The translations under genes were made by a program, and so were the position numbers. This document shows positions 22,420 to 30,617 of a stretch of DNA of 32,000 bases, piece after piece. Position 1 is the first letter of the stretch. Every line of letters starts with the position of its first letter. The notes under the pieces are model-generated. The model made no database searches. It was not told the origin of the DNA and saw only the letters and a program-made list of their open reading frames with translations. Origin of the DNA: Candidatus Thorarchaeota archaeon (GTDB lineage: Archaea > Asgardarchaeota > Thorarchaeia > Thorarchaeales > Thorarchaeaceae); contig SHMX01000006.1 in the NCBI GenBank assembly GCA_008080745.1, forward strand, positions 60,001 through 92,000, written 5' to 3'.

Positions 22420-22920
22420 ATGGTGAAAAAAGAATATTATATACCCATAATTGTTATCATGCTTATCCTTCTGACATTGTTAGTTTTTTCATTTTTTAAT
22501 CTGGATATCAGTATCTTGATAACTGCTGTTTTGTTTGTAATTGTAATTGGCATATTTGCCTTTTTAAAAGGCGTAGGTAGTTTTTTCGCTAGTTCTATAG
22601 TAGCAAAACTTCCAAATGTAACGTTATTTCCAGAAACCATTCCAATTAGAGAAAGGAAAAAATATGAAATGCTAAGAGTTGTTAGGAACCCACAAACAGG
22701 AAAGGAAATTGTAATCGGGGGCAACAGGGATACAACATATCGAGCAGCTATGATCAGAAACTGGGATTTTGTAAAAATTGCTAAGGATTCCCCTTGGATA
22801 CTACGAGATGAGATCGGTAACGATATAACTGACTCAAATCTGGAAGATTATGATGGAATAGTGACCATAGAACATCTTGATATACCTCAGCATGGTTACA
22901 GAGATGATTCTACAGATTAA
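22420..22920 (+). CDS. 2-TM membrane protein with a C-terminal ubiquitin-like domain (paralog 1)
   Basis: Two N-terminal hydrophobic helices; domain LRVVRNPQTGKEIVIGG..TTY..A...W.F......W.L.D..GNDIT...LEDYDGIV. CDS is solid; the fold call is inferred. Confidence 0.7.
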   Translation: MVKKEYYIPIIVIMLILLTLLVFSFFNLDISILITAVLFVIVIGIFAFLKGVGSFFASSIVAKLPNVTLFPETIPIRERKKYEMLRVVRNPQTGKEIVIGGNRDTTYRAAMIRNWDFVKIAKDSPWILRDEIGNDITDSNLEDYDGIVTIEHLDIPQHGYRDDSTD

Positions 22921-22989
22921 GGAAAAAGAAAAGAGAATATTCAACTTCTCGTCTTGGTGTGGAGTTCTATAATTAGAAAGAAATAGGGT

Positions 22990-23463
22990 GTGACAGCGAT
23001 GTCTAAGCAAATCCAAGGAAGACGAATTATTCTTGGAATAACCATTTTCTTTGTGATGATTTTCTCATCAGCTATTCTCATCTATTTTGGTCCAGTAATC
23101 TCCTTTCTTTTTGCTTTTTTCTCGATGATTTGTTTTGTCAGAGGGCTTCTTTCCATAGACGTGATGCAAAGAGGATTATCTAGAATGAATATAGAAGGAG
23201 CGTATATCAGCCGAATTGGTATTCTAGGAAGCCCATCTTCTGCTTCAATGATTAATCGTATTATCATTAATCCAATTGACGAAACACAGTATACAATAAC
23301 TGGTCGTTCTGATATGACCTTTCGTGAATCATGTCTTTATGACTGGCCATTTCAAAATATTCGCATCGATTCCAAATGGTATATTTTCAGTGAGAATGAA
23401 ACGGATATCAGCAACCTTCCCTTATCCCGTTATGATGGAATAGCTTGGATAAGAACAGAGTAA
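22990..23463 (+). CDS. 2-TM membrane protein with the same C-terminal domain (paralog 2, most diverged)
   Basis: NP...Y.ITG..DMTF..SC..DWPF..I....W......DIS...LSRYDGIAWI. Confidence 0.7.
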   Translation: MTAMSKQIQGRRIILGITIFFVMIFSSAILIYFGPVISFLFAFFSMICFVRGLLSIDVMQRGLSRMNIEGAYISRIGILGSPSSASMINRIIINPIDETQYTITGRSDMTFRESCLYDWPFQNIRIDSKWYIFSENETDISNLPLSRYDGIAWIRTE

Positions 23464-23510
23464 ATGAAAAACAAAAAGCTGTTAAACAATCACGAGCTTG
23501 TGATACTACC

Positions 23511-23978
23511 ATGACAGATCAATTCATTGAAACACTGGCGAAGGGGCTCAAAGCTAAATATACTCACGTGGATCCTATCCGAGCCCTACAAGCTATCAGT
23601 ATAGATAAGGTCGTGGAAAAACCCAATCCCCAAACACGTTCTATCTTTGAGCTGCTTCACCACGTAGTACTATGGCAAAATCTCACTATTGAGGCTCTAC
23701 AGGGACATGATGTAATTTGGCCGAAAAAAGGAGAAGACTGGCCGAAATCAAACGCGGTCAGCAAAGAGGGATGGAAAGAACTTGTCGAAGAATTCACTCA
23801 GGGCTTGGAACGGGCAGAGATTGTCGCAGAAATGCTAGAGTCTGAAACACCCATTCCTGCATGGGAAAATATGTCAGCGTCAAATGGATTACTTGTATTG
23901 GTGCAACATAACTCATATCATATGGGGCAGATTGTTCTTCTTAGGCAGGTTCTAGGTATCTGGCCTCCAGAAAGTTGA
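23511..23978 (+). CDS. DinB/YfiT-family protein
   Basis: SIFELLHHV..W and HNSYHMGQI. Start trimmed to ATG 23511 to avoid overlap with the upstream gene. Confidence 0.85.
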   Translation: MTDQFIETLAKGLKAKYTHVDPIRALQAISIDKVVEKPNPQTRSIFELLHHVVLWQNLTIEALQGHDVIWPKKGEDWPKSNAVSKEGWKELVEEFTQGLERAEIVAEMLESETPIPAWENMSASNGLLVLVQHNSYHMGQIVLLRQVLGIWPPES

Positions 23979-23979
23979 T

Positions 23980-26346
23980 TCAATCGGCCTTCTCGACACG
24001 AACCAATACCGAATTGAAACCCGGTGTGTGTCCGAATGCGGTGTGTTTATCATCGGTAAGGTAGTTCATGTTGCCGTTTTTGTTCCACCATCCATCAGAG
24101 CTCCAGATGATTCGATGATCTAAATCCTCGTTTAGTCGTAGTTCGATGTTCTCAACTCTTCCACGAGGGGACTCGATATTGACCAAATCACCTTCCTGAA
24201 GTCCATGCAAATTAGCTGTTGAAGGATGCATCCAAATCCAAGCACGTTTCTCCTCCTTGCTTTTAGGCGGCATCCGTATTGGTTTCACAACTACGTCGAA
24301 GGGACAGATATCCAGCTCACATTCTCTACAACCTATGCATTGTTTTGAGTCCCATTTCGGAATAAGAAGCCCGGTAATTTCTTTAGGAATGGAAAGAGGA
24401 CGACTTGATACATCAACAGCAAGCGAACTGACCAACTTTCCCAGATGTTTTCTTATAGGCGCATGTGTATCTTCAATTCCATCTTCTTTCAATTTCTCAG
24501 CAGTGGGACTAATGAGAGATATAGCTTCATCTGGACATTCTTGAACACATTTTTGACACGTCGTACAATTCTGAAAGCTTGTTACATCCCCACCGACTTC
24601 AACAGTGGTATACTGTGAATGGAGGCGTTCTCGCAATCTTCCTGTGATCATGATGAGGGGGAATTTTCGATATAAGAGTGGAGTTGAGATCGGACTTTCT
24701 GCGGGTTCTTCATGAAACGGTAATGGATCAATGCCCATTCTTTTTAGAGCCGGCGAATATAACTCGACCTTTCCAGTTTCGGTTCTAAATTTTTTATCAG
24801 CAAAAGGAATCGCGACTTCATTGGTTCTAACACCTTCAGGATGATCTATCAAATCTTCAAGTGAGATGTTACTACATTGTACGCTACCTAGGGCTAACCT
24901 AATTGTATCGATCTCAGTCAAATCAAAATATTCCCCAAGTTCTAACCGTTCAGCAATACCCCGCCATATAGCTAATTCGTGTCGTGCTTCTCCAATTGGT
25001 TCAATTATTTTAGGTGCATATTGTACAATTCGATGGAGTTCACTATGAACGAGATTATGGTGTTCAAATATTAATGTGGCTGGTAAAACAATATCACATT
25101 CCTTTGCAGTGTCAGTCATTTCCAAATCGATACAGACTTTGAATGGTATCTTTTCGAAGGCGGCTTTAGTCTTGGAAGTATTTGGCCACTGAGTGATAGG
25201 ACTAGCTGCCTGAATAACAAATACCTCAAGTGGGCTTTTCTCGTGACTAAGAATGAATTCTGGAATGTATGTACCGGAAGGAACTATCGGTATAACACTT
25301 TCAGGTAGTATATCTTGAAGTGTGATAGCAGCACTATTGAAAGGGCTAAAATCAGAAGAAAGGTATTGAAATCCTCCACCTGAAACACCGAGATAACCGC
25401 ATATTGCTAGGAGACTATGGACTGCTCTTGCAGTATGACTACCATTTGTATAATGATTCATACCCGCAGGTGCAGTCATAATAAGTGATGGTCCATGAGT
25501 TGCAAATGTAACAGCTAATTGCTCGATGGTATTCGGATCAACCCAAGTAATCTCACTGACTCGTTTTCGGTCATACGTTTTTACTCGCTCACAATACTCC
25601 GTAAAACCATGAACATATTTCTCTACGAATTTTTTGTCATAGAGACCTCGATCAATGATGATATTCGCCATTCCTAGAGCGAGAGCTGCATCAGTCCCAG
25701 GTCTAATCGTGGTATAGATGTCAGCCATGTTTGCATGTGGTGTTTTTCTTGGATCAATGACTATGAGTTTAGCACCATGCTCAATTGCTTCCTGAATTAA
25801 TCTTTTAGAATGAAGACCAGATTCGAACTTGTTTGTGCCCCAGATTACAATACATCGAGAATTTACCAAGTCACTCAGTTCATGAGGGGGAAATGGACCC
25901 ACGCTAAAACGTGCCCCTTCATATGCACCCTCAAAACAAATCTCTACAATCCCAGGAATCATTCTGCATCCAAACACATTACTGAATCGTGATGCGATTC
26001 GCGGAGCCATTCCATCGTTTCCTGACCCTGAATATATACCCACAGCTTGAGGCCCGTATTCCTCTTTTGCCGTTCTCATTCTCTCTGCAATCTCGTCTAA
26101 TGCTTCGTCCCACGATATTCTCTTGAATGAGCCATCATCTTTTTTCTTCATAGGATATCTGAGTCGGTCTTCATAGTATGTACGTAAAACATGTGAATAG
26201 CCTTTGGGACAGGCTCTACCTAATGTATAGGGATGATCAGGATCTCCCTCTAATCGAGTAATTATACCATTTTCGACATGAATAAGAAAGGCACAGATAT
26301 CTGGGCAATTCAATGCACAAGCAGTGGAGAATATTTCTTTGGTCAT
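23980..26346 (-). CDS. Cytoplasmic DMSO-reductase-family molybdopterin oxidoreductase with an N-terminal [4Fe-4S] and an inserted 2x[4Fe-4S] ferredoxin
   Basis: CALNCPDIC..GDPDHP...ACPKG, WDEALD, probable metal-ligand Cys in EICF, IWGTN, VIDPR, IRPGTD, DIVLPA, TGKVEL, LIMITGR..LHSQ; no Tat signal. Start taken as ATG 26346. Confidence 0.93.
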   Translation of the reverse strand: MTKEIFSTACALNCPDICAFLIHVENGIITRLEGDPDHPYTLGRACPKGYSHVLRTYYEDRLRYPMKKKDDGSFKRISWDEALDEIAERMRTAKEEYGPQAVGIYSGSGNDGMAPRIASRFSNVFGCRMIPGIVEICFEGAYEGARFSVGPFPPHELSDLVNSRCIVIWGTNKFESGLHSKRLIQEAIEHGAKLIVIDPRKTPHANMADIYTTIRPGTDAALALGMANIIIDRGLYDKKFVEKYVHGFTEYCERVKTYDRKRVSEITWVDPNTIEQLAVTFATHGPSLIMTAPAGMNHYTNGSHTARAVHSLLAICGYLGVSGGGFQYLSSDFSPFNSAAITLQDILPESVIPIVPSGTYIPEFILSHEKSPLEVFVIQAASPITQWPNTSKTKAAFEKIPFKVCIDLEMTDTAKECDIVLPATLIFEHHNLVHSELHRIVQYAPKIIEPIGEARHELAIWRGIAERLELGEYFDLTEIDTIRLALGSVQCSNISLEDLIDHPEGVRTNEVAIPFADKKFRTETGKVELYSPALKRMGIDPLPFHEEPAESPISTPLLYRKFPLIMITGRLRERLHSQYTTVEVGGDVTSFQNCTTCQKCVQECPDEAISLISPTAEKLKEDGIEDTHAPIRKHLGKLVSSLAVDVSSRPLSIPKEITGLLIPKWDSKQCIGCRECELDICPFDVVVKPIRMPPKSKEEKRAWIWMHPSTANLHGLQEGDLVNIESPRGRVENIELRLNEDLDHRIIWSSDGWWNKNGNMNYLTDDKHTAFGHTPGFNSVLVRVEKAD

Positions 26347-26586
26347 TACCCATTTGTCATATATTACTATCAATAACTCTTACTGTATATTATAATCACA
26401 TCGCAGGAGTCCTAATGAGATTAGAGAAATTAGACGAATGAGTCGATAATCCAATATGGATAAAAATGAAAAAGAAAAAGTATTTTCTTACATTATTTTT
26501 AGTTTCATATCAGGAAGAACCAAGTTCCAAATGACTTTGAGAAGATAAGCTTAATAGATTTCATTTGGATAGATTTATGATTTCAA

Positions 26587-27132
26587 ATGATTGATGTTTC
26601 AAAAAGATTCAAGGGATTTATCCTATTCCTTGTCATTCTTTTTTCCTTGCTCATTATAATGACACTGATAGATCCAACCAGTTATTTTACATCTTTATTT
26701 TCAACAGGAACAATAATTGTAACCATCTTTCTTATTTTTGAATTCATGCTTACGTTAAGTATCGAGGCACAGCCAGAGGGTGCATCCAATGCACATATCT
26801 ATGCAGAACACGAAAAGAAACCGGTAGTCAGGAGGAAGCCAGCCGAAATCCTCAGGGTTGTCAAAGACCCATATAATGGTGAAGAAATACTCATTGGTGG
26901 AAAAAAGACAACCACTTATGGAGAGGCATGCCGCGAAGATTGGGATTTCAAAGGCATCGATAAGAAAGCATCTTGGATTTTGCGTGATGATAAAGGAAAT
27001 GACATAACTAATATGCATCTAGCTGACTATGATGGAATAGTGGTGATTGAACTTCTTGAATTAGAAGGGCACAAGACTTCAGACAGAGAAAAAGAGGATT
27101 CCAAGCATATGGGCGTGGAATATTACGATTAA
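26587..27132 (+). CDS. 2-TM membrane protein with a C-terminal ubiquitin-like domain (paralog 3)
   Basis: ILRVVKDPYNGEEILIGG..TTYGEAC..DWDF......WILRDDKGNDITNMHLADYDGIVVI. Confidence 0.72.
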   Translation: MIDVSKRFKGFILFLVILFSLLIIMTLIDPTSYFTSLFSTGTIIVTIFLIFEFMLTLSIEAQPEGASNAHIYAEHEKKPVVRRKPAEILRVVKDPYNGEEILIGGKKTTTYGEACREDWDFKGIDKKASWILRDDKGNDITNMHLADYDGIVVIELLELEGHKTSDREKEDSKHMGVEYYD

Positions 27133-27308: not shown

Positions 27309-30300
27309 TTGACTGATTTACACCCGATACAAATTGTGGAATATTCTGATGATTTAGCCAAAAAAGTTGCTAATATGTGGAACACCTGGGATGAGCTTTG
27401 GATAGGCGGATTCACTCAGGGAGTACCATACACCGAAGAACGTGTACAGGAACAAATGGCAACAATGCAGAGAATTTCTCAACTCATAGCGATTGATGAT
27501 GAAACAGGAGAAGCTATTGGGTCTTGCTCGGTACTGCAACACTGGCAAGATGACGAAGCTGCATATGTTGGATTGTTAGGAGTGTCACCTTCTGCACTTA
27601 ATAAGAAGGTAGGAAAACGTCTACTTCTTCGTGCTGTACAGATTGCTATTGAGAGAGGTTACACACGAATTGATCTGCATACATGGGCAGGGAACCTCAG
27701 GGCTCTCCCGCTTTACAAGAAAATTGGTCTCATGTGGGATCCAGAAGGTAATGGTGTTTCTATGCAGGACTATATTCCAGGAATTCTAAAGCATCAGCTA
27801 ACAGCTCCGTTTTTCATCGGAAAAGAAGAGTCTGCATGGTATGATCTACAAAAGAGAGAGATTTCTCAAGCTCCCGACGATATGTCTGAGAATAATATGG
27901 CAGTATTCAAATATAGATTTGAAGATGAAGAGAACTTTATTGACGTAATAGTTGATAGAATAGGGAGGGGGATAACTGGTTTATCACGAGAGTTAGATGG
28001 AGAATCTCTTAGTGTTCAGGCATACCCATCCCATCAAGACATCATCTGTGGGATTCCAGCAAAATATACTATTGAGATACAAAATGGTATGAAAATGAAT
28101 CTTGACCTTACAGTCACGCTTGATGCCTTTGAAGGCATTGTATTAGATGACCTGACAACTGAAACTATTATCAAAACAGGTACCACTTTCAAATGGGAAG
28201 TTCCATTCACAGTGGACTCAAGTGCGCCCTTACACAGAATAGACCACAAGAGTCCATCAATAACAGCATCCATTAATTTAGGTGGAGTAAGCTCAAAACT
28301 AGTAACTGGACTAAGGATAAATTCGATTGCGGACATTTCTACAGAATGGGGTGACTGTAAGCTAGCTCCAGGCGGAACAGCTGAATTACCAATTAACATC
28401 AGAAATCAATACAAAGCATTTAGTGGTAAGTTAGTCTTAACTAGCGATACTGAACAGATATCAGTAATTCCCTCGACTAGCGAAATCGAATTAGATTCGA
28501 AATCTTTTGGAGGACTAGTTGCAGAAATCAGTGCGAAACGAGATACTGATACCAAATCGTATAACATTTGGGCATATTTTGATGTTGAAACAGAAAGTTT
28601 CGATGGTGAACCAATCAAACTTCGGACAAGGAAATTCAAAATACCGATTTACTGCATTGGTGATGGGATAGCGAGAGTAGGAGAGATTGAGAAGGAACGG
28701 TTGGTTCGCGTTGTTTCTGAAACATTTCATGCAACTGCAAATCGTGAAGGGGGAAGATGCACCTTTGTAACACCTCAAGGAGCACGTAGGGCAAATCCCT
28801 CAGTTGATTTTCGTGTAGGACCACCATTTGGTATCGATCCATTTAGATTCGCTGAAAGAGAGATTAAAACTACCTACAAGACAGATTCAACTACTCTCTC
28901 AATTAGCGCAAAACATCCAGGGAGACCTCTATTACTTGAAACGGAAATTGTTTTTCCTAAAGGAAATGAAATAATCCGTGCAGATTTTTGGGTCACCAAT
29001 ACAAGTGAAGAACCGCACACATTTCAAGCTCGCATGTATGGACCGGATGGAGGAATCTCACTTGGTTCAATTGGTACGATGTTTATCCCTTTGAAGTCGG
29101 GCCTCATTGAGGGACCAATAACAAGCTCATTCACAACAAATCAAGCGCTTCCCACAAATCCAAATGAGTGGGCGGAAGATTGGGTAGCTCAATATGATGG
29201 AAGAGGAGTTACTGGTCAATTCTGGAGTTCGAAAGGAACAAAAAAGGTTCAGATTGTTTTTGGTCGTATAGGTAAATTGGAGTATGAGGATATTACTCTA
29301 CAACCTAGTGAAAAGCGAAGGATAAGCCAAATCTGGAATGTGCTATCTGCTGAACATTGGACTGATATTCATCAAGCTTGGAAGAGGACAATCAAAGGAC
29401 AATACGAACTCCCATACGAAGTTGAAGACCCCGAAGATTCCAAATATATTCTCGAATTGAAAGCAGAAACCGTAGTAACTCGTCCAAAACAGACAGTCAA
29501 GGTAGATGTAACTTTTTCCAATCATAGCAATGTAGTTATTCCAGGCGATTTAGTGATTTGGGCTCCTGACGGGTATAAAATGACGTCAGTATCAATTGAT
29601 TCTGCTGAGATAACAGATGGCAAATGCACAATACAAGACTTCATTCCAGAAGGAAATCAAGACCTTACCATCATGCTAGAACCAACCAAAGATCTACCAA
29701 ATGGATTCTGCTTGTCAGAAGGTAAGATGTTATACAAATCAGTCAGTGAAACCCACGGAGTATATCAAATCATACAACTCGGTATGAGTAACGCTTCAGT
29801 GGAGATTGCAAAAAGTACAGAGAGTAACAGGGAAGTTTACACAATTGATAATGGTCTTATATCTTTCAAGGTGTCACCTGATTTTGGTGGATGCATGACT
29901 TCTCTGAAAAACAGTAATTCCACCGAACTACTAGTATCAGCATTCCCTGAGGCAAGTCCAAAAATTTTTCTTGAGAATTATTTCGGAGGAGTTCAACCTG
30001 TATTCTGGACAGACCATCCAGATGATGGTCTAGTAAAAGCAAAGACAAATCTAGAGGATATGGAAATTCAAGTCACTGAGATTAGCGATTTATGGAAAGG
30101 AGTAGAACTATCTTGGACTGCAGAAGTTCAGAAATTCCTACGAGGATTAGATTTCAAAATACAATATCTCACTGCTCCCGGATGTCCAATGATTATTATC
30201 TCATCCACAATTAACAATGACACTTCAGCACCCTTCACACTAAGCCCCTCTTTTTTCATTGATAATGCATTCAATGGAGACCTATCCAATATGGTTATTG

Positions 30301-30617
30301 AATCAGTCTTCGGTCATAAGAGAAGTACATCTAGAGTAGGAGATATTCCGATTTCATACATATCTGAAAATAATATCATATGGACCCGAAAGGAAGATTC
30401 TCAAAAGACTCCTGAGGGATTAGGACTGATGATTCCATACGAGCAAAAGAAGGGTCTGTTTATTGGTATTCAAGGATTGGTCCTGACTGGTTTCACTGAA
30501 CGAAAAATATACCTTAAGCCAGGAGAGAAGAAGAATATCATCTTTGCGCTTCTTGTAGATCCGCCTAGTCTAGAGTTAATGGAGAAACTGAGAGGTCTTA
30601 TTTTAGGCCTGCTTTAG
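27309..30617 (+). CDS. Large (1102 aa) protein: N-terminal GNAT followed by ~900 aa of beta-rich domains
   Basis: YVGLLGVSP....KKVGKRLL and LHTWAGNLRALPLYKKIG; C-terminal YTIDNGLISFKVSPDFGG..SL resembles the start of a galactose-mutarotase-like sandwich. Confidence 0.82.
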   Translation: MTDLHPIQIVEYSDDLAKKVANMWNTWDELWIGGFTQGVPYTEERVQEQMATMQRISQLIAIDDETGEAIGSCSVLQHWQDDEAAYVGLLGVSPSALNKKVGKRLLLRAVQIAIERGYTRIDLHTWAGNLRALPLYKKIGLMWDPEGNGVSMQDYIPGILKHQLTAPFFIGKEESAWYDLQKREISQAPDDMSENNMAVFKYRFEDEENFIDVIVDRIGRGITGLSRELDGESLSVQAYPSHQDIICGIPAKYTIEIQNGMKMNLDLTVTLDAFEGIVLDDLTTETIIKTGTTFKWEVPFTVDSSAPLHRIDHKSPSITASINLGGVSSKLVTGLRINSIADISTEWGDCKLAPGGTAELPINIRNQYKAFSGKLVLTSDTEQISVIPSTSEIELDSKSFGGLVAEISAKRDTDTKSYNIWAYFDVETESFDGEPIKLRTRKFKIPIYCIGDGIARVGEIEKERLVRVVSETFHATANREGGRCTFVTPQGARRANPSVDFRVGPPFGIDPFRFAEREIKTTYKTDSTTLSISAKHPGRPLLLETEIVFPKGNEIIRADFWVTNTSEEPHTFQARMYGPDGGISLGSIGTMFIPLKSGLIEGPITSSFTTNQALPTNPNEWAEDWVAQYDGRGVTGQFWSSKGTKKVQIVFGRIGKLEYEDITLQPSEKRRISQIWNVLSAEHWTDIHQAWKRTIKGQYELPYEVEDPEDSKYILELKAETVVTRPKQTVKVDVTFSNHSNVVIPGDLVIWAPDGYKMTSVSIDSAEITDGKCTIQDFIPEGNQDLTIMLEPTKDLPNGFCLSEGKMLYKSVSETHGVYQIIQLGMSNASVEIAKSTESNREVYTIDNGLISFKVSPDFGGCMTSLKNSNSTELLVSAFPEASPKIFLENYFGGVQPVFWTDHPDDGLVKAKTNLEDMEIQVTEISDLWKGVELSWTAEVQKFLRGLDFKIQYLTAPGCPMIIISSTINNDTSAPFTLSPSFFIDNAFNGDLSNMVIESVFGHKRSTSRVGDIPISYISENNIIWTRKEDSQKTPEGLGLMIPYEQKKGLFIGIQGLVLTGFTERKIYLKPGEKKNIIFALLVDPPSLELMEKLRGLILGLL

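Follow-up and report, generated by a model that had tools for sequence, protein, structure and literature searches.

Three genes in a 32,000-nucleotide stretch of a Candidatus Thorarchaeota genome (GenBank assembly GCA_008080745.1, contig SHMX01000006.1, positions 60,001 to 92,000 of the forward strand; hereafter the window) encode small paralogous proteins, here called p1, p2 and p3, in which a predicted two-helix membrane hairpin is joined to a C-terminal domain with a predicted ubiquitin-like (Ubl) beta-grasp fold. The proteins belong to a family that is restricted, among the genomes searched, to the taxonomic family of the window, and one of its two clades carries a conserved acidic C-terminal tail. 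We propose, with a probability of about 0.6, that these membrane-tethered, non-conjugatable Ubl proteins serve as docking modules for a cytoplasmic partner.

Three paralogous genes encode a membrane hairpin and a common domain

All three open reading frames (ORFs) were present on the forward strand where the first-pass annotation of the window had placed them, with lengths of 166, 157 and 181 residues (Table 1). The proteins align over their whole length, as expected of the paralogs they had been taken for; BLASTP gave E values of 2e-33 for p1 against p3 (40% identity across 157 residues) and 1e-16 for p2 against p3, similarities that are, at the level of sequence, far beyond chance. In the family tree described below, p1 is the sister of p3 (support 100/93). 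The motif that had been drawn up for the common domain stood in substance, with its invariant R, I.G, T, W.F, I, W, DI, L and YDGI, although the regular expression as literally written found no match, its spacings being approximate. Two starts are available for p2, GTG at 22990 (157 residues) and ATG at 22999 (154 residues). Public gene calls start p3 (157 residues) and p2 (92 residues) too late, at internal Met codons, so that one or both membrane helices are lost; the longer N-termini of both proteins are kept in orthologs of the same genus.

Each protein contains the two N-terminal transmembrane helices that had been annotated, visible as two hydrophobic 19-residue segments with mean Kyte-Doolittle values of 2.2-3.05, and in the AlphaFold2 model of p3 two helices are followed by a low-confidence linker. 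Topology was counted over 82 family representatives in which 45 residues or more precede the domain. Exactly two hydrophobic segments were found in 66 of them, and lysine plus arginine residues averaged 2.9 for the N-terminal stub, 0.24 for the loop between the helices and 3.3 for the linker after the second helix. This positive-inside pattern predicts that both ends of the protein, and with them the Ubl domain, are cytoplasmic, in agreement with the membrane tethering initially suggested. The hairpin helices are weakly conserved across the family, and a basic linker of about 20 residues joins them to the Ubl domain.

A fourth copy was found elsewhere in the genome, on another contig (G000:C1:629275-629505; L004:1477-1707), and again in a genome of the same genus. 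It is a stand-alone Ubl domain of 76 residues, with neither membrane helices nor tail nor GG, which adjoins an MscL-like gene and forms the longest branch of the family tree.

The C-terminal domain is predicted to adopt the ubiquitin-like beta-grasp fold

The AlphaFold2 model of p3, built on a 28-sequence alignment, shows a compact strand-strand-helix-strand-strand domain at residues 85-158 (strands 88-93, 100-105, 130-133 and 152-156; helix 111-117) with a predicted local distance difference test score (pLDDT) of 95-98. A second model of domain plus tail, built on 104 sequences, gave the same fold (pLDDT 86.6 overall, predicted template-modelling score 0.70). When the p3 model was compared with the Protein Data Bank (PDB) using Foldseek, nearly all of the top 50 matches were ubiquitin, NEDD8, SUMO, a bacterial Ubl or Raf Ras-binding domains (RBDs), the best being the bacterial operon Ubl 8tyx_A; the top matches had template-modelling (TM) scores, by target, of 0.6-0.67 and root-mean-square deviations (rmsd) of 2.7-3.3 Å across about 74 columns, and identity to ubiquitin and NEDD8 was 18-23%. 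VIA-align gave Z values of 7-8.1 for the chains matched by Foldseek and, in a search of 48,161 PDB representatives, ubiquitin-superfold proteins at nearly all of the top 50 places (Z 6.4-7.9). Matches at Z 6.4-8.1 had an rmsd of about 2.5 Å across 70-75 residues, and the top-50 matches of the three fold searches span 67-78 residues. The predicted model therefore falls within the ubiquitin-like beta-grasp superfold (SCOP d.15.1 / Pfam clan Ubiquitin), the fold that had been proposed on first inspection.

The two subfamilies share about 20 conserved positions in the domain: strand 1 has R and strand 2 has E/G, T-F-R-x-A marks the start of the helix, and the others are W-x-F, W-x-x-x-D, G-N-D-[IV]-[TS], L and G-I. 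This number exceeds what the fold itself needs and suggests a conserved interaction surface. No Cys or His pattern of the cofactor-binding kind is conserved in the domain.

The family is homologous to a GG-ended Ubl but not detectably to ubiquitin

The proteins had been taken for an undescribed family, and sequence searches agreed: Pfam, PADLOC and a sequence search of the PDB all failed to recognize them. None of the three proteins matched Pfam at E<=10; the domain profile matched PDB sequences only at chance level (ribosomal L10e, E 1.4); a word-indexed protein search returned only the query itself; and a related-locus search with the single proteins returned one record, labelled 'uncultured archaeon'. 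The alignment to ubiquitin that had been made by eye did not survive statistically. No PF00240 match was found at E<=10, and hhalign against 16 Asgard ubiquitins gave a probability of 1.6%; the alignment suits the structure but lacks statistical support.

An exhaustive HMMER search over 1.84 billion representative proteins, answering the earlier call for a profile-based count of the family, yielded 132 cluster representatives, 114 of them at E<1e-10. Nearly all matches are 55-230 residues long with the domain at the C-terminal end, and the homologs are named 'hypothetical protein' in their source records. The window proteins end in ...DDSTD, ...WIRTE and ...VEYYD, consistent with the lack of a di-Gly end noted previously. 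Among the matches, GG was found only in two distant soluble relatives of 73-76 residues, whose HMMER matches are weak but significant: P0126 (76 residues) ends in ...TGG, and P0118 ends in ...GGK, with GG one residue before the end. A comparison of the family domain with P0126 by hhalign gave a probability of 98.2% (E 2.7e-14, 66 columns), indicating by profile similarity that the membrane family is kin to a conjugation-type Ubl.

The P0126 gene lies in a metagenome-assembled genome (MAG) labelled Candidatus Heimdallarchaeota (GCA_014730365.1, WJIK01000108.1, 2056-8143; locus L036), whose accession appeared in no paper of the literature searched. The gene order there is the 76-residue GG-ended Ubl, a 120-residue E2-like protein, a 619-residue ThiF E1, a 544-residue JAB protein and a protein of 263 residues, with a second JAB gene nearby on the opposite strand; the 120-residue protein directly 3' of P0126 is E2-like by predicted fold and features. 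Judged from its gene content, the locus is an operon for Ubl conjugation of the prokaryote type, and the Ubl that it encodes is a homolog of the thorarchaeotal membrane family. A maximum-likelihood tree placed both GG forms on a long branch next to a single tail-bearing member (99/91). Because the tree is unrooted and based on 77 columns, it gives no order for the GG and membrane forms. No close relative of the L036 E1 was found in the genome of the window, which yielded only a weak 259-residue ThiF match, and no E1, E2 or JAB genes are among the neighbours in the window. The absence of GG from the membrane forms, together with the absence of the L036-type E1 from the genome, implies that these proteins cannot be conjugated.

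The family occurs where canonical ubiquitin does not

Using the domain profile, we found the family in 54 of the 76 genomes of the window's taxonomic family and in none of the 224 genomes from 29 other families of the phylum. One member, P0017, comes from a record that is likewise labelled Candidatus Thorarchaeota. The reverse distribution was observed for PF00240 ubiquitin, which was absent from all 10 genomes examined in the window's family (its own genome included) but present in 56 of 71 elsewhere in the phylum, confirming the published gap: Thorarchaeota 'seemingly lack true ubiquitin homologues' and have kept ESCRT (endosomal sorting complexes required for transport) components (bioRxiv 10.1101/2021.08.17.456605). 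The membrane Ubl family and canonical ubiquitin have mutually exclusive phyletic patterns.

One clade carries a conserved C-terminal tail

A further feature, which the first-pass annotation did not mention, is the tail of p3, ending in ...M-G-V-E-Y-Y-D. At least 15 residues follow the domain in 51 of 108 near-complete representatives, and 41 of these 51 have an [F/Y]-Y-D end; about 40% of the members end in ...V-E-[F/Y]-Y-D-COOH. The consensus of the last 16 residues is [ED]-S-D-E-Y-S-[SD]-[IML]-[DH]-x-[GS]-V-[ET]-[YF]-Y-D-COOH, with V at position -5 in 41, Y at -2 in 42 and D at -1 in 41 of 43 tails. The tree splits into two well-separated clades (99/96). One holds every tail form and all copies in the window, and has lost the tail repeatedly among its members; the other is wholly tail-less. 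In the second structural model the last 10 tail residues have a pLDDT of 72, as opposed to 53 for the linker before them.

The tail appears to be private to the family. In its own genome p3 is the sole ORF that ends in [FY]YD, and when 81 related genomes were searched for the DNA pattern encoding V-E-[FY]-Y-D-stop, full-length ORFs ending in it were family genes only. A role as a portable signal on other proteins was rejected, since every in-frame ORF end with the pattern belongs to the family. One further match, a 37-residue frame cut by the end of a contig (L126), looks like a truncated family tail, and the remaining matches are stop-to-stop frames of 8-33 residues. One of these, a 33-codon frame ending in ...E-L-G-V-E-F-Y-D (L142; G234:C5:134802-134819), lies in a genus in which no family member was found, and may be the relic of a lost family gene or may have arisen by chance.

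With its Y-Y-D end, p3 has a hydrophobic residue, Tyr and any residue (HbYX) at its extreme C-terminus. HbYX is the ending of about 0.9% of archaeal proteins (PMC11475706). Glutamate dehydrogenase and a few other, unrelated ORFs share a hydrophobic-Tyr-X end, indicating that the bare three-residue pattern is unspecific, and the additional invariant D at -1 and V at -5 suggest a dedicated reader. A reading of E-[FY]-Y-D as an FFAT-like motif (two phenylalanines in an acidic tract) was discarded because no MSP domain (PF00635) was found in the genome.

In p1 the tail motif is still encoded, one base out of frame behind the TAA stop (Table 1), and two run-level assemblies, with depths of 43x and 112x, have identical letters at this remnant. 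Frames 0 and -1 are both open only in the 10-nucleotide overlap 22908-22917, which contains no slippery heptamer; a programmed frameshift was set aside on this ground and the change was read as a mutation. The identical letters in both assemblies and the missing slippery site point to a recent one-base frameshift, and the p1 tail thus looks as if it has been uncoupled by it. In a related genome, another tail-bearing gene (L055; G008:C110, 6954-7561) is split into overlapping ORFs of 109 residues (hairpin and domain start) and 100 residues (the rest and the tail), and is likely a frameshifted copy.

Gene neighbourhood

In the window, the order of genes is CitMHS transporter, DUF6454, GNAT, p1 and p2, DinB_2, molybdopterin oxidoreductase (opposite strand), p3 and a 1102-residue GNAT-fusion protein. 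The block of CitMHS, GNAT, Ubl, DinB_2, molybdopterin oxidoreductase and large GNAT genes was found again in eight or more genomes from several genera, with Ubl and DinB genes on the same strand and separated by 6-40 nucleotides. Family genes often stand in tandem, as pairs or triplets, and the genes of the tail-less clade sit at unrelated places.

Three further genes of the window are worth noting. The molybdopterin oxidoreductase (23980-26373, reverse strand, 797 residues), which is highly conserved beside Ubl genes, has 4Fe-4S ferredoxin motifs between its Molybdopterin and Molydop_binding domains. The 1102-residue protein (27309-30617) has an N-terminal GNAT domain followed by about 950 residues that match nothing in Pfam, and is conserved (E down to 0) at the block of Ubl and molybdopterin oxidoreductase genes in at least seven genomes. 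A Ras-family GTPase of 168 residues (16995-17501, reverse strand; Pfam Ras, E 9e-42) is encoded 5 kb upstream of the Ubl genes and is syntenic with them in a genome of the same genus. A link to a UFL1-like winged-helix tail gene just past the window was dismissed, as that gene occurs in only 3 of 81 related genomes. A genomic link to ESCRT was also dismissed: the EAP30/Vps28-like gene lies on another contig (C1:436.5 kb), with no proximity to the Ubl genes.

Table 1. Coordinates of the Ubl genes, their parts and the adjacent DinB_2 gene, numbered from the first nucleotide of the window
Feature	Position	Strand	Evidence
Paralog 1 (p1), 166 residues: membrane hairpin, linker and predicted Ubl domain; tail apparently uncoupled by frameshift	22420..22920	+	ORF; BLASTP 2e-33 to p3
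p1 predicted membrane hairpin, residues about 8-26 and 30-48	22441..22563	+	Hydropathy peaks 3.01 and 3.02 per 19 residues
p1 predicted ubiquitin-like beta-grasp domain	22657..22881	+	Domain alignment; 56% identity to p3 domain
p1 out-of-frame tail remnant, E-Y-S-T-S-R-L-G-V-E-F-Y-N-stop	22935..22976	+	Three-frame translation; -1/+2 frame 3' of p1 stop
Paralog 2 (p2): hairpin, linker and predicted Ubl domain, no tail	22990..23463	+	ORF; BLASTP 1e-16 to p3; same-genus ortholog keeps N-terminus
p2 predicted membrane hairpin, residues about 13-54, G-P turn mid-way	23026..23151	+	Hydropathy peaks 2.77 and 2.24
p2 predicted ubiquitin-like beta-grasp domain	23239..23460	+	Row of domain alignment
DinB_2-family gene directly 3' of p2; frequent, not obligate, family neighbour	23511..23978	+	Pfam PF12867
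Paralog 3 (p3), 181 residues: hairpin, linker, predicted Ubl domain and conserved tail	26587..27132	+	ORF; AlphaFold2 mean pLDDT 82.9
p3 predicted membrane hairpin, residues about 10-28 and 34-59	26614..26763	+	AlphaFold2 helices 4-28 and 33-61; hydropathy peaks
p3 predicted ubiquitin-like beta-grasp domain (strand-strand-helix-strand-strand)	26836..27060	+	pLDDT 95-98; fold searches
p3 acidic tail ending G-V-E-Y-Y-D-COOH	27061..27129 (terminal motif 27109-27129)	+	Family tail consensus

A proposed docking role and its alternatives

The genes and their paralogy, the predicted fold and topology, the homology to a GG-ended Ubl, the phyletic pattern and the conservation of the tail all come from prediction or from sequence. 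On these features we base the proposal of a membrane-tethered docking module. The two-helix hairpin, with both termini inside, would anchor the Ubl domain at the cytoplasmic face of the membrane, and a fixed surface of that domain would recruit the cytoplasmic partner to the membrane. In one clade the acidic tail, ...Y-S-x-I-D-x-G-V-E-[F/Y]-Y-D-COOH, would supply a second docking element, its free C-terminus having the shape of the HbYX / Y-Phi peptides through which proteasome activators dock, and of other docking peptides at carboxy-termini.

Several observations weigh against this proposal. The PAN and Cdc48 homologs of the genome have no canonical HbYX ends, making HbYX use in this lineage uncertain. 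The family is missing from 22 of the 76 related genomes, including several with a completeness of 92-97%, indicating that it is dispensable. Of about 33 genomes that hold both genes, about 13 have DinB_2 next to a family gene, and DinB_2 and family genes each occur without the other; with context links partial and lineage-bound, synteny is weak evidence of function. As to expression, the sequencing runs that carry the sequence were two marine-sediment DNA runs, possibly the source of the MAG, and no RNA run. VIA-align warns that a Z below 8 may stem from a common arrangement, and the structural Z values (<=8.1) lie in that range; the fold was accepted because the matches are homogeneous and cover the whole domain and because the sequence is homologous to that of a GG-ended Ubl.

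A more specific possibility is that the proteins tether or activate the 20S proteasome, or a Cdc48/PAN-type ATPase, with the tail entering the pockets of the alpha ring and the Ubl domain making a second contact, so that degradation would be localized at the membrane. Genes for two alpha subunits, PAN and two Cdc48 homologs are present in the genome; PAN and Cdc48 are established to dock to the archaeal 20S through HbYX (PMC3493965); human 20S favours Y-[F/Y] at P3-P2 (PMC8907193), as here; and the terminal hydrophobic-Tyr-X is nearly invariant in the 43 tails and private to the family. Given how common HbYX ends are among archaeal proteins, however, the three-residue match is weak alone, the invariant last D and the V at -5 go beyond what HbYX docking needs and speak for a more specific reader, and the tail is missing in more than half of the family. 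Moreover, the genome's own PAN homolog (G000:C2:363329-364531) ends in ...D-M-F-C, and its Cdc48 homologs end, in the order listed, in ...P-G-V-I (C2:157209-159404) and ...P-G-Y-V (C3:166766-168955). We consider this reading unlikely. Co-folding of three proteasome alpha copies with the Ubl domain plus tail gave a score of 0.00, which, in a run without controls, is evidence neither way. The same tail can be read as part of a self-assembling scaffold, in which an acidic element resembling an LC3-interacting region or a SUMO-interacting motif (Y-S-x-[ILM] ... V-E-F-Y-D) would engage the Ubl domain on an adjacent molecule or on the tandem paralog, forming head-to-tail chains or heterodimers. Binding of peptides to Ubls is well known for Atg8 and SUMO, tandem genes are frequent in the family, and the raised pLDDT of the tail end may reflect a predicted contact with the domain; but the tail was modelled without a strand or a defined contact, and tail-less members are the majority, with one whole clade among them, so that we regard such assembly as quite improbable.

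Two alternatives start from the neighbouring genes. A beta-grasp domain acting as an RBD or a Ras-association (RA) domain would make the protein a membrane receptor for a Ras/Rab-like small GTPase, holding a lipid-free Asgard GTPase at the membrane. The nearby Ras-family gene, kept in place in the same-genus genome, would suit this, as would the high rank of Raf RBD and RA domains in the structural searches, where they are among the best matches (Z 7.5-8.1). Those Z values are nevertheless equalled by ubiquitin, UFM1 and NEDD8, RBDs show only 7-12% identity against the 18-23% noted above for ubiquitin and NEDD8, Pfam RBD (PF02196) and RA (PF00788) do not match, and the homolog found by sequence is the GG-ended Ubl of an E1/JAB operon; the GTPase gene, too, is not adjacent, and its synteny was observed only within the genus. 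There is, in our view, little chance that the family serves this purpose. The proteins might also be accessory or anchoring subunits of the DinB_2 protein, of the ferredoxin-inserted molybdopterin oxidoreductase or of the 1102-residue GNAT-fusion protein, as the recurrent block and the short same-strand gaps to DinB would allow. This we think very unlikely, given the partial adjacency of DinB, its occurrence in genomes without the family, the four genera that have the family and in which this DinB was not found, the separate location of the tail-less clade and the absence of a conserved cofactor-binding Cys/His pattern; a gene order shared within one taxonomic family may also be plain inheritance.

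A broader version of the docking idea would tie it to the loss of ubiquitin. Thorarchaeota would have lost free ubiquitin and kept parts of ESCRT-I/II, Cdc48, PAN and the 20S proteasome, and a Ubl genetically fused to a membrane anchor, armed in one clade with an [F/Y]-Y-D C-terminus of the proteasome-activator type, would serve in place of the ubiquitin tag as a signal built into the membrane and dock the proteasome, Cdc48 or ESCRT there. We hold this to be a long shot.

Significance

A membrane-integral protein with a UBL domain is new for archaea, as is the tail motif; the literature searched contained no paper on Thorarchaeota, ubiquitin-like and transmembrane together and none describing the family. 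Three results go beyond the first-pass annotation: the GG-ended homolog in an operon with E1, E2-like and JAB genes, the restriction to a taxonomic family without ubiquitin, and the HbYX-like tail. The ubiquitin gap of Thorarchaeota is thus mirrored by a private family of membrane-anchored proteins of predicted ubiquitin fold, related to a conjugatable Asgard Ubl. In eukaryotes, non-conjugated membrane-bound UBL domains organize endoplasmic-reticulum-associated degradation (ERAD) and membrane ubiquitylation; an archaeal counterpart was not described in the literature searched, EccD in bacteria aside. The family offers a handle on ubiquitin-fold recognition in an Asgard lineage without ubiquitylation, and the 75-residue domain and the 16-residue peptide are small, soluble and tractable baits. 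If the partner were the proteasome, Cdc48 or ESCRT, the family would bear on the origin of membrane-linked protein quality control before eukaryotes, and if it had replaced the ubiquitin tag, it would stand as a counterpart in prokaryotes, or a forerunner, of the adaptors that serve ERAD and endosomal sorting.

Comparison with known systems

Eukaryotic membrane UBL proteins such as HERPUD1 and TMUB1/2 recruit ubiquitin-system or ERAD factors. Like these two, yeast Usa1, Dsc3 and the lipid-anchored MUB/UBL3 (PMC4996978, PMC9001657), the thorarchaeotal proteins are predicted to display a non-conjugated ubiquitin fold at the cytosolic face of a membrane. Unlike them, the family has no detectable PF00240-type relation, its domain order and anchor differ, and no ubiquitin system was found in the window lineage; the resemblance is one of predicted architecture only. 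Asgard ubiquitin itself (PF00240, 77-84 residues, ending in R-T-[ET]-G-G), which most other families of the phylum have, shares the fold class but differs in its hhalign probability of 1.6% to the family and in the mutually exclusive distribution.

EccD of type VII secretion (PF08817 and PF19053) is likewise a membrane protein of prokaryotes that contains a cytoplasmic Ubl as an integral part, and a structural search of the ESM Atlas returned EccD/YukD clusters as neighbours (TM score 0.55). Its Ubl domain, however, is N-terminal and followed by about 11 helices, and its context is bacterial secretion, whereas the window family has no Pfam match to YukD/EccD, the reversed architecture and two helices. 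UBX domains (PF00789) are similarly unmatched in Pfam: the loop between strands 3 and 4 reads D-x-x-G-N-D-[IV]-[TS] in the family, not R...FPR, and the family has a conserved W-P-F in the loop from the helix to strand 3. The tail resembles the HbYX / Y-Phi peptides of PAN, Cdc48 and Blm10/PA200 (PMC3493965, PMC8907193) in its hydrophobic-Tyr-X, here [F/Y]-Y-D after an acidic stretch, but it has two more invariant sites, at the last residue and at position -5, and its carrier is a small membrane protein rather than a ring ATPase.

The family therefore falls outside PF00240, the conjugatable Ubls, UBX and YukD. Its nearest relatives in sequence are the operon-type prokaryotic Ubls, to which P0126 provides the homologous link (hhalign 98.2%), and its closest analogues in architecture are eukaryotic HERPUD1, TMUB, Usa1 and MUB/UBL3 and bacterial EccD-YukD. 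The window proteins differ from Bil/Bub-type operon Ubls (PDB 8tyx/8tyz) in having no GG, a membrane hairpin, no E1/E2/JAB neighbours and a genome without that E1, and share with them the predicted fold, 8tyx_A being the best Foldseek match and 8tyz_B having a Z of 7.1.

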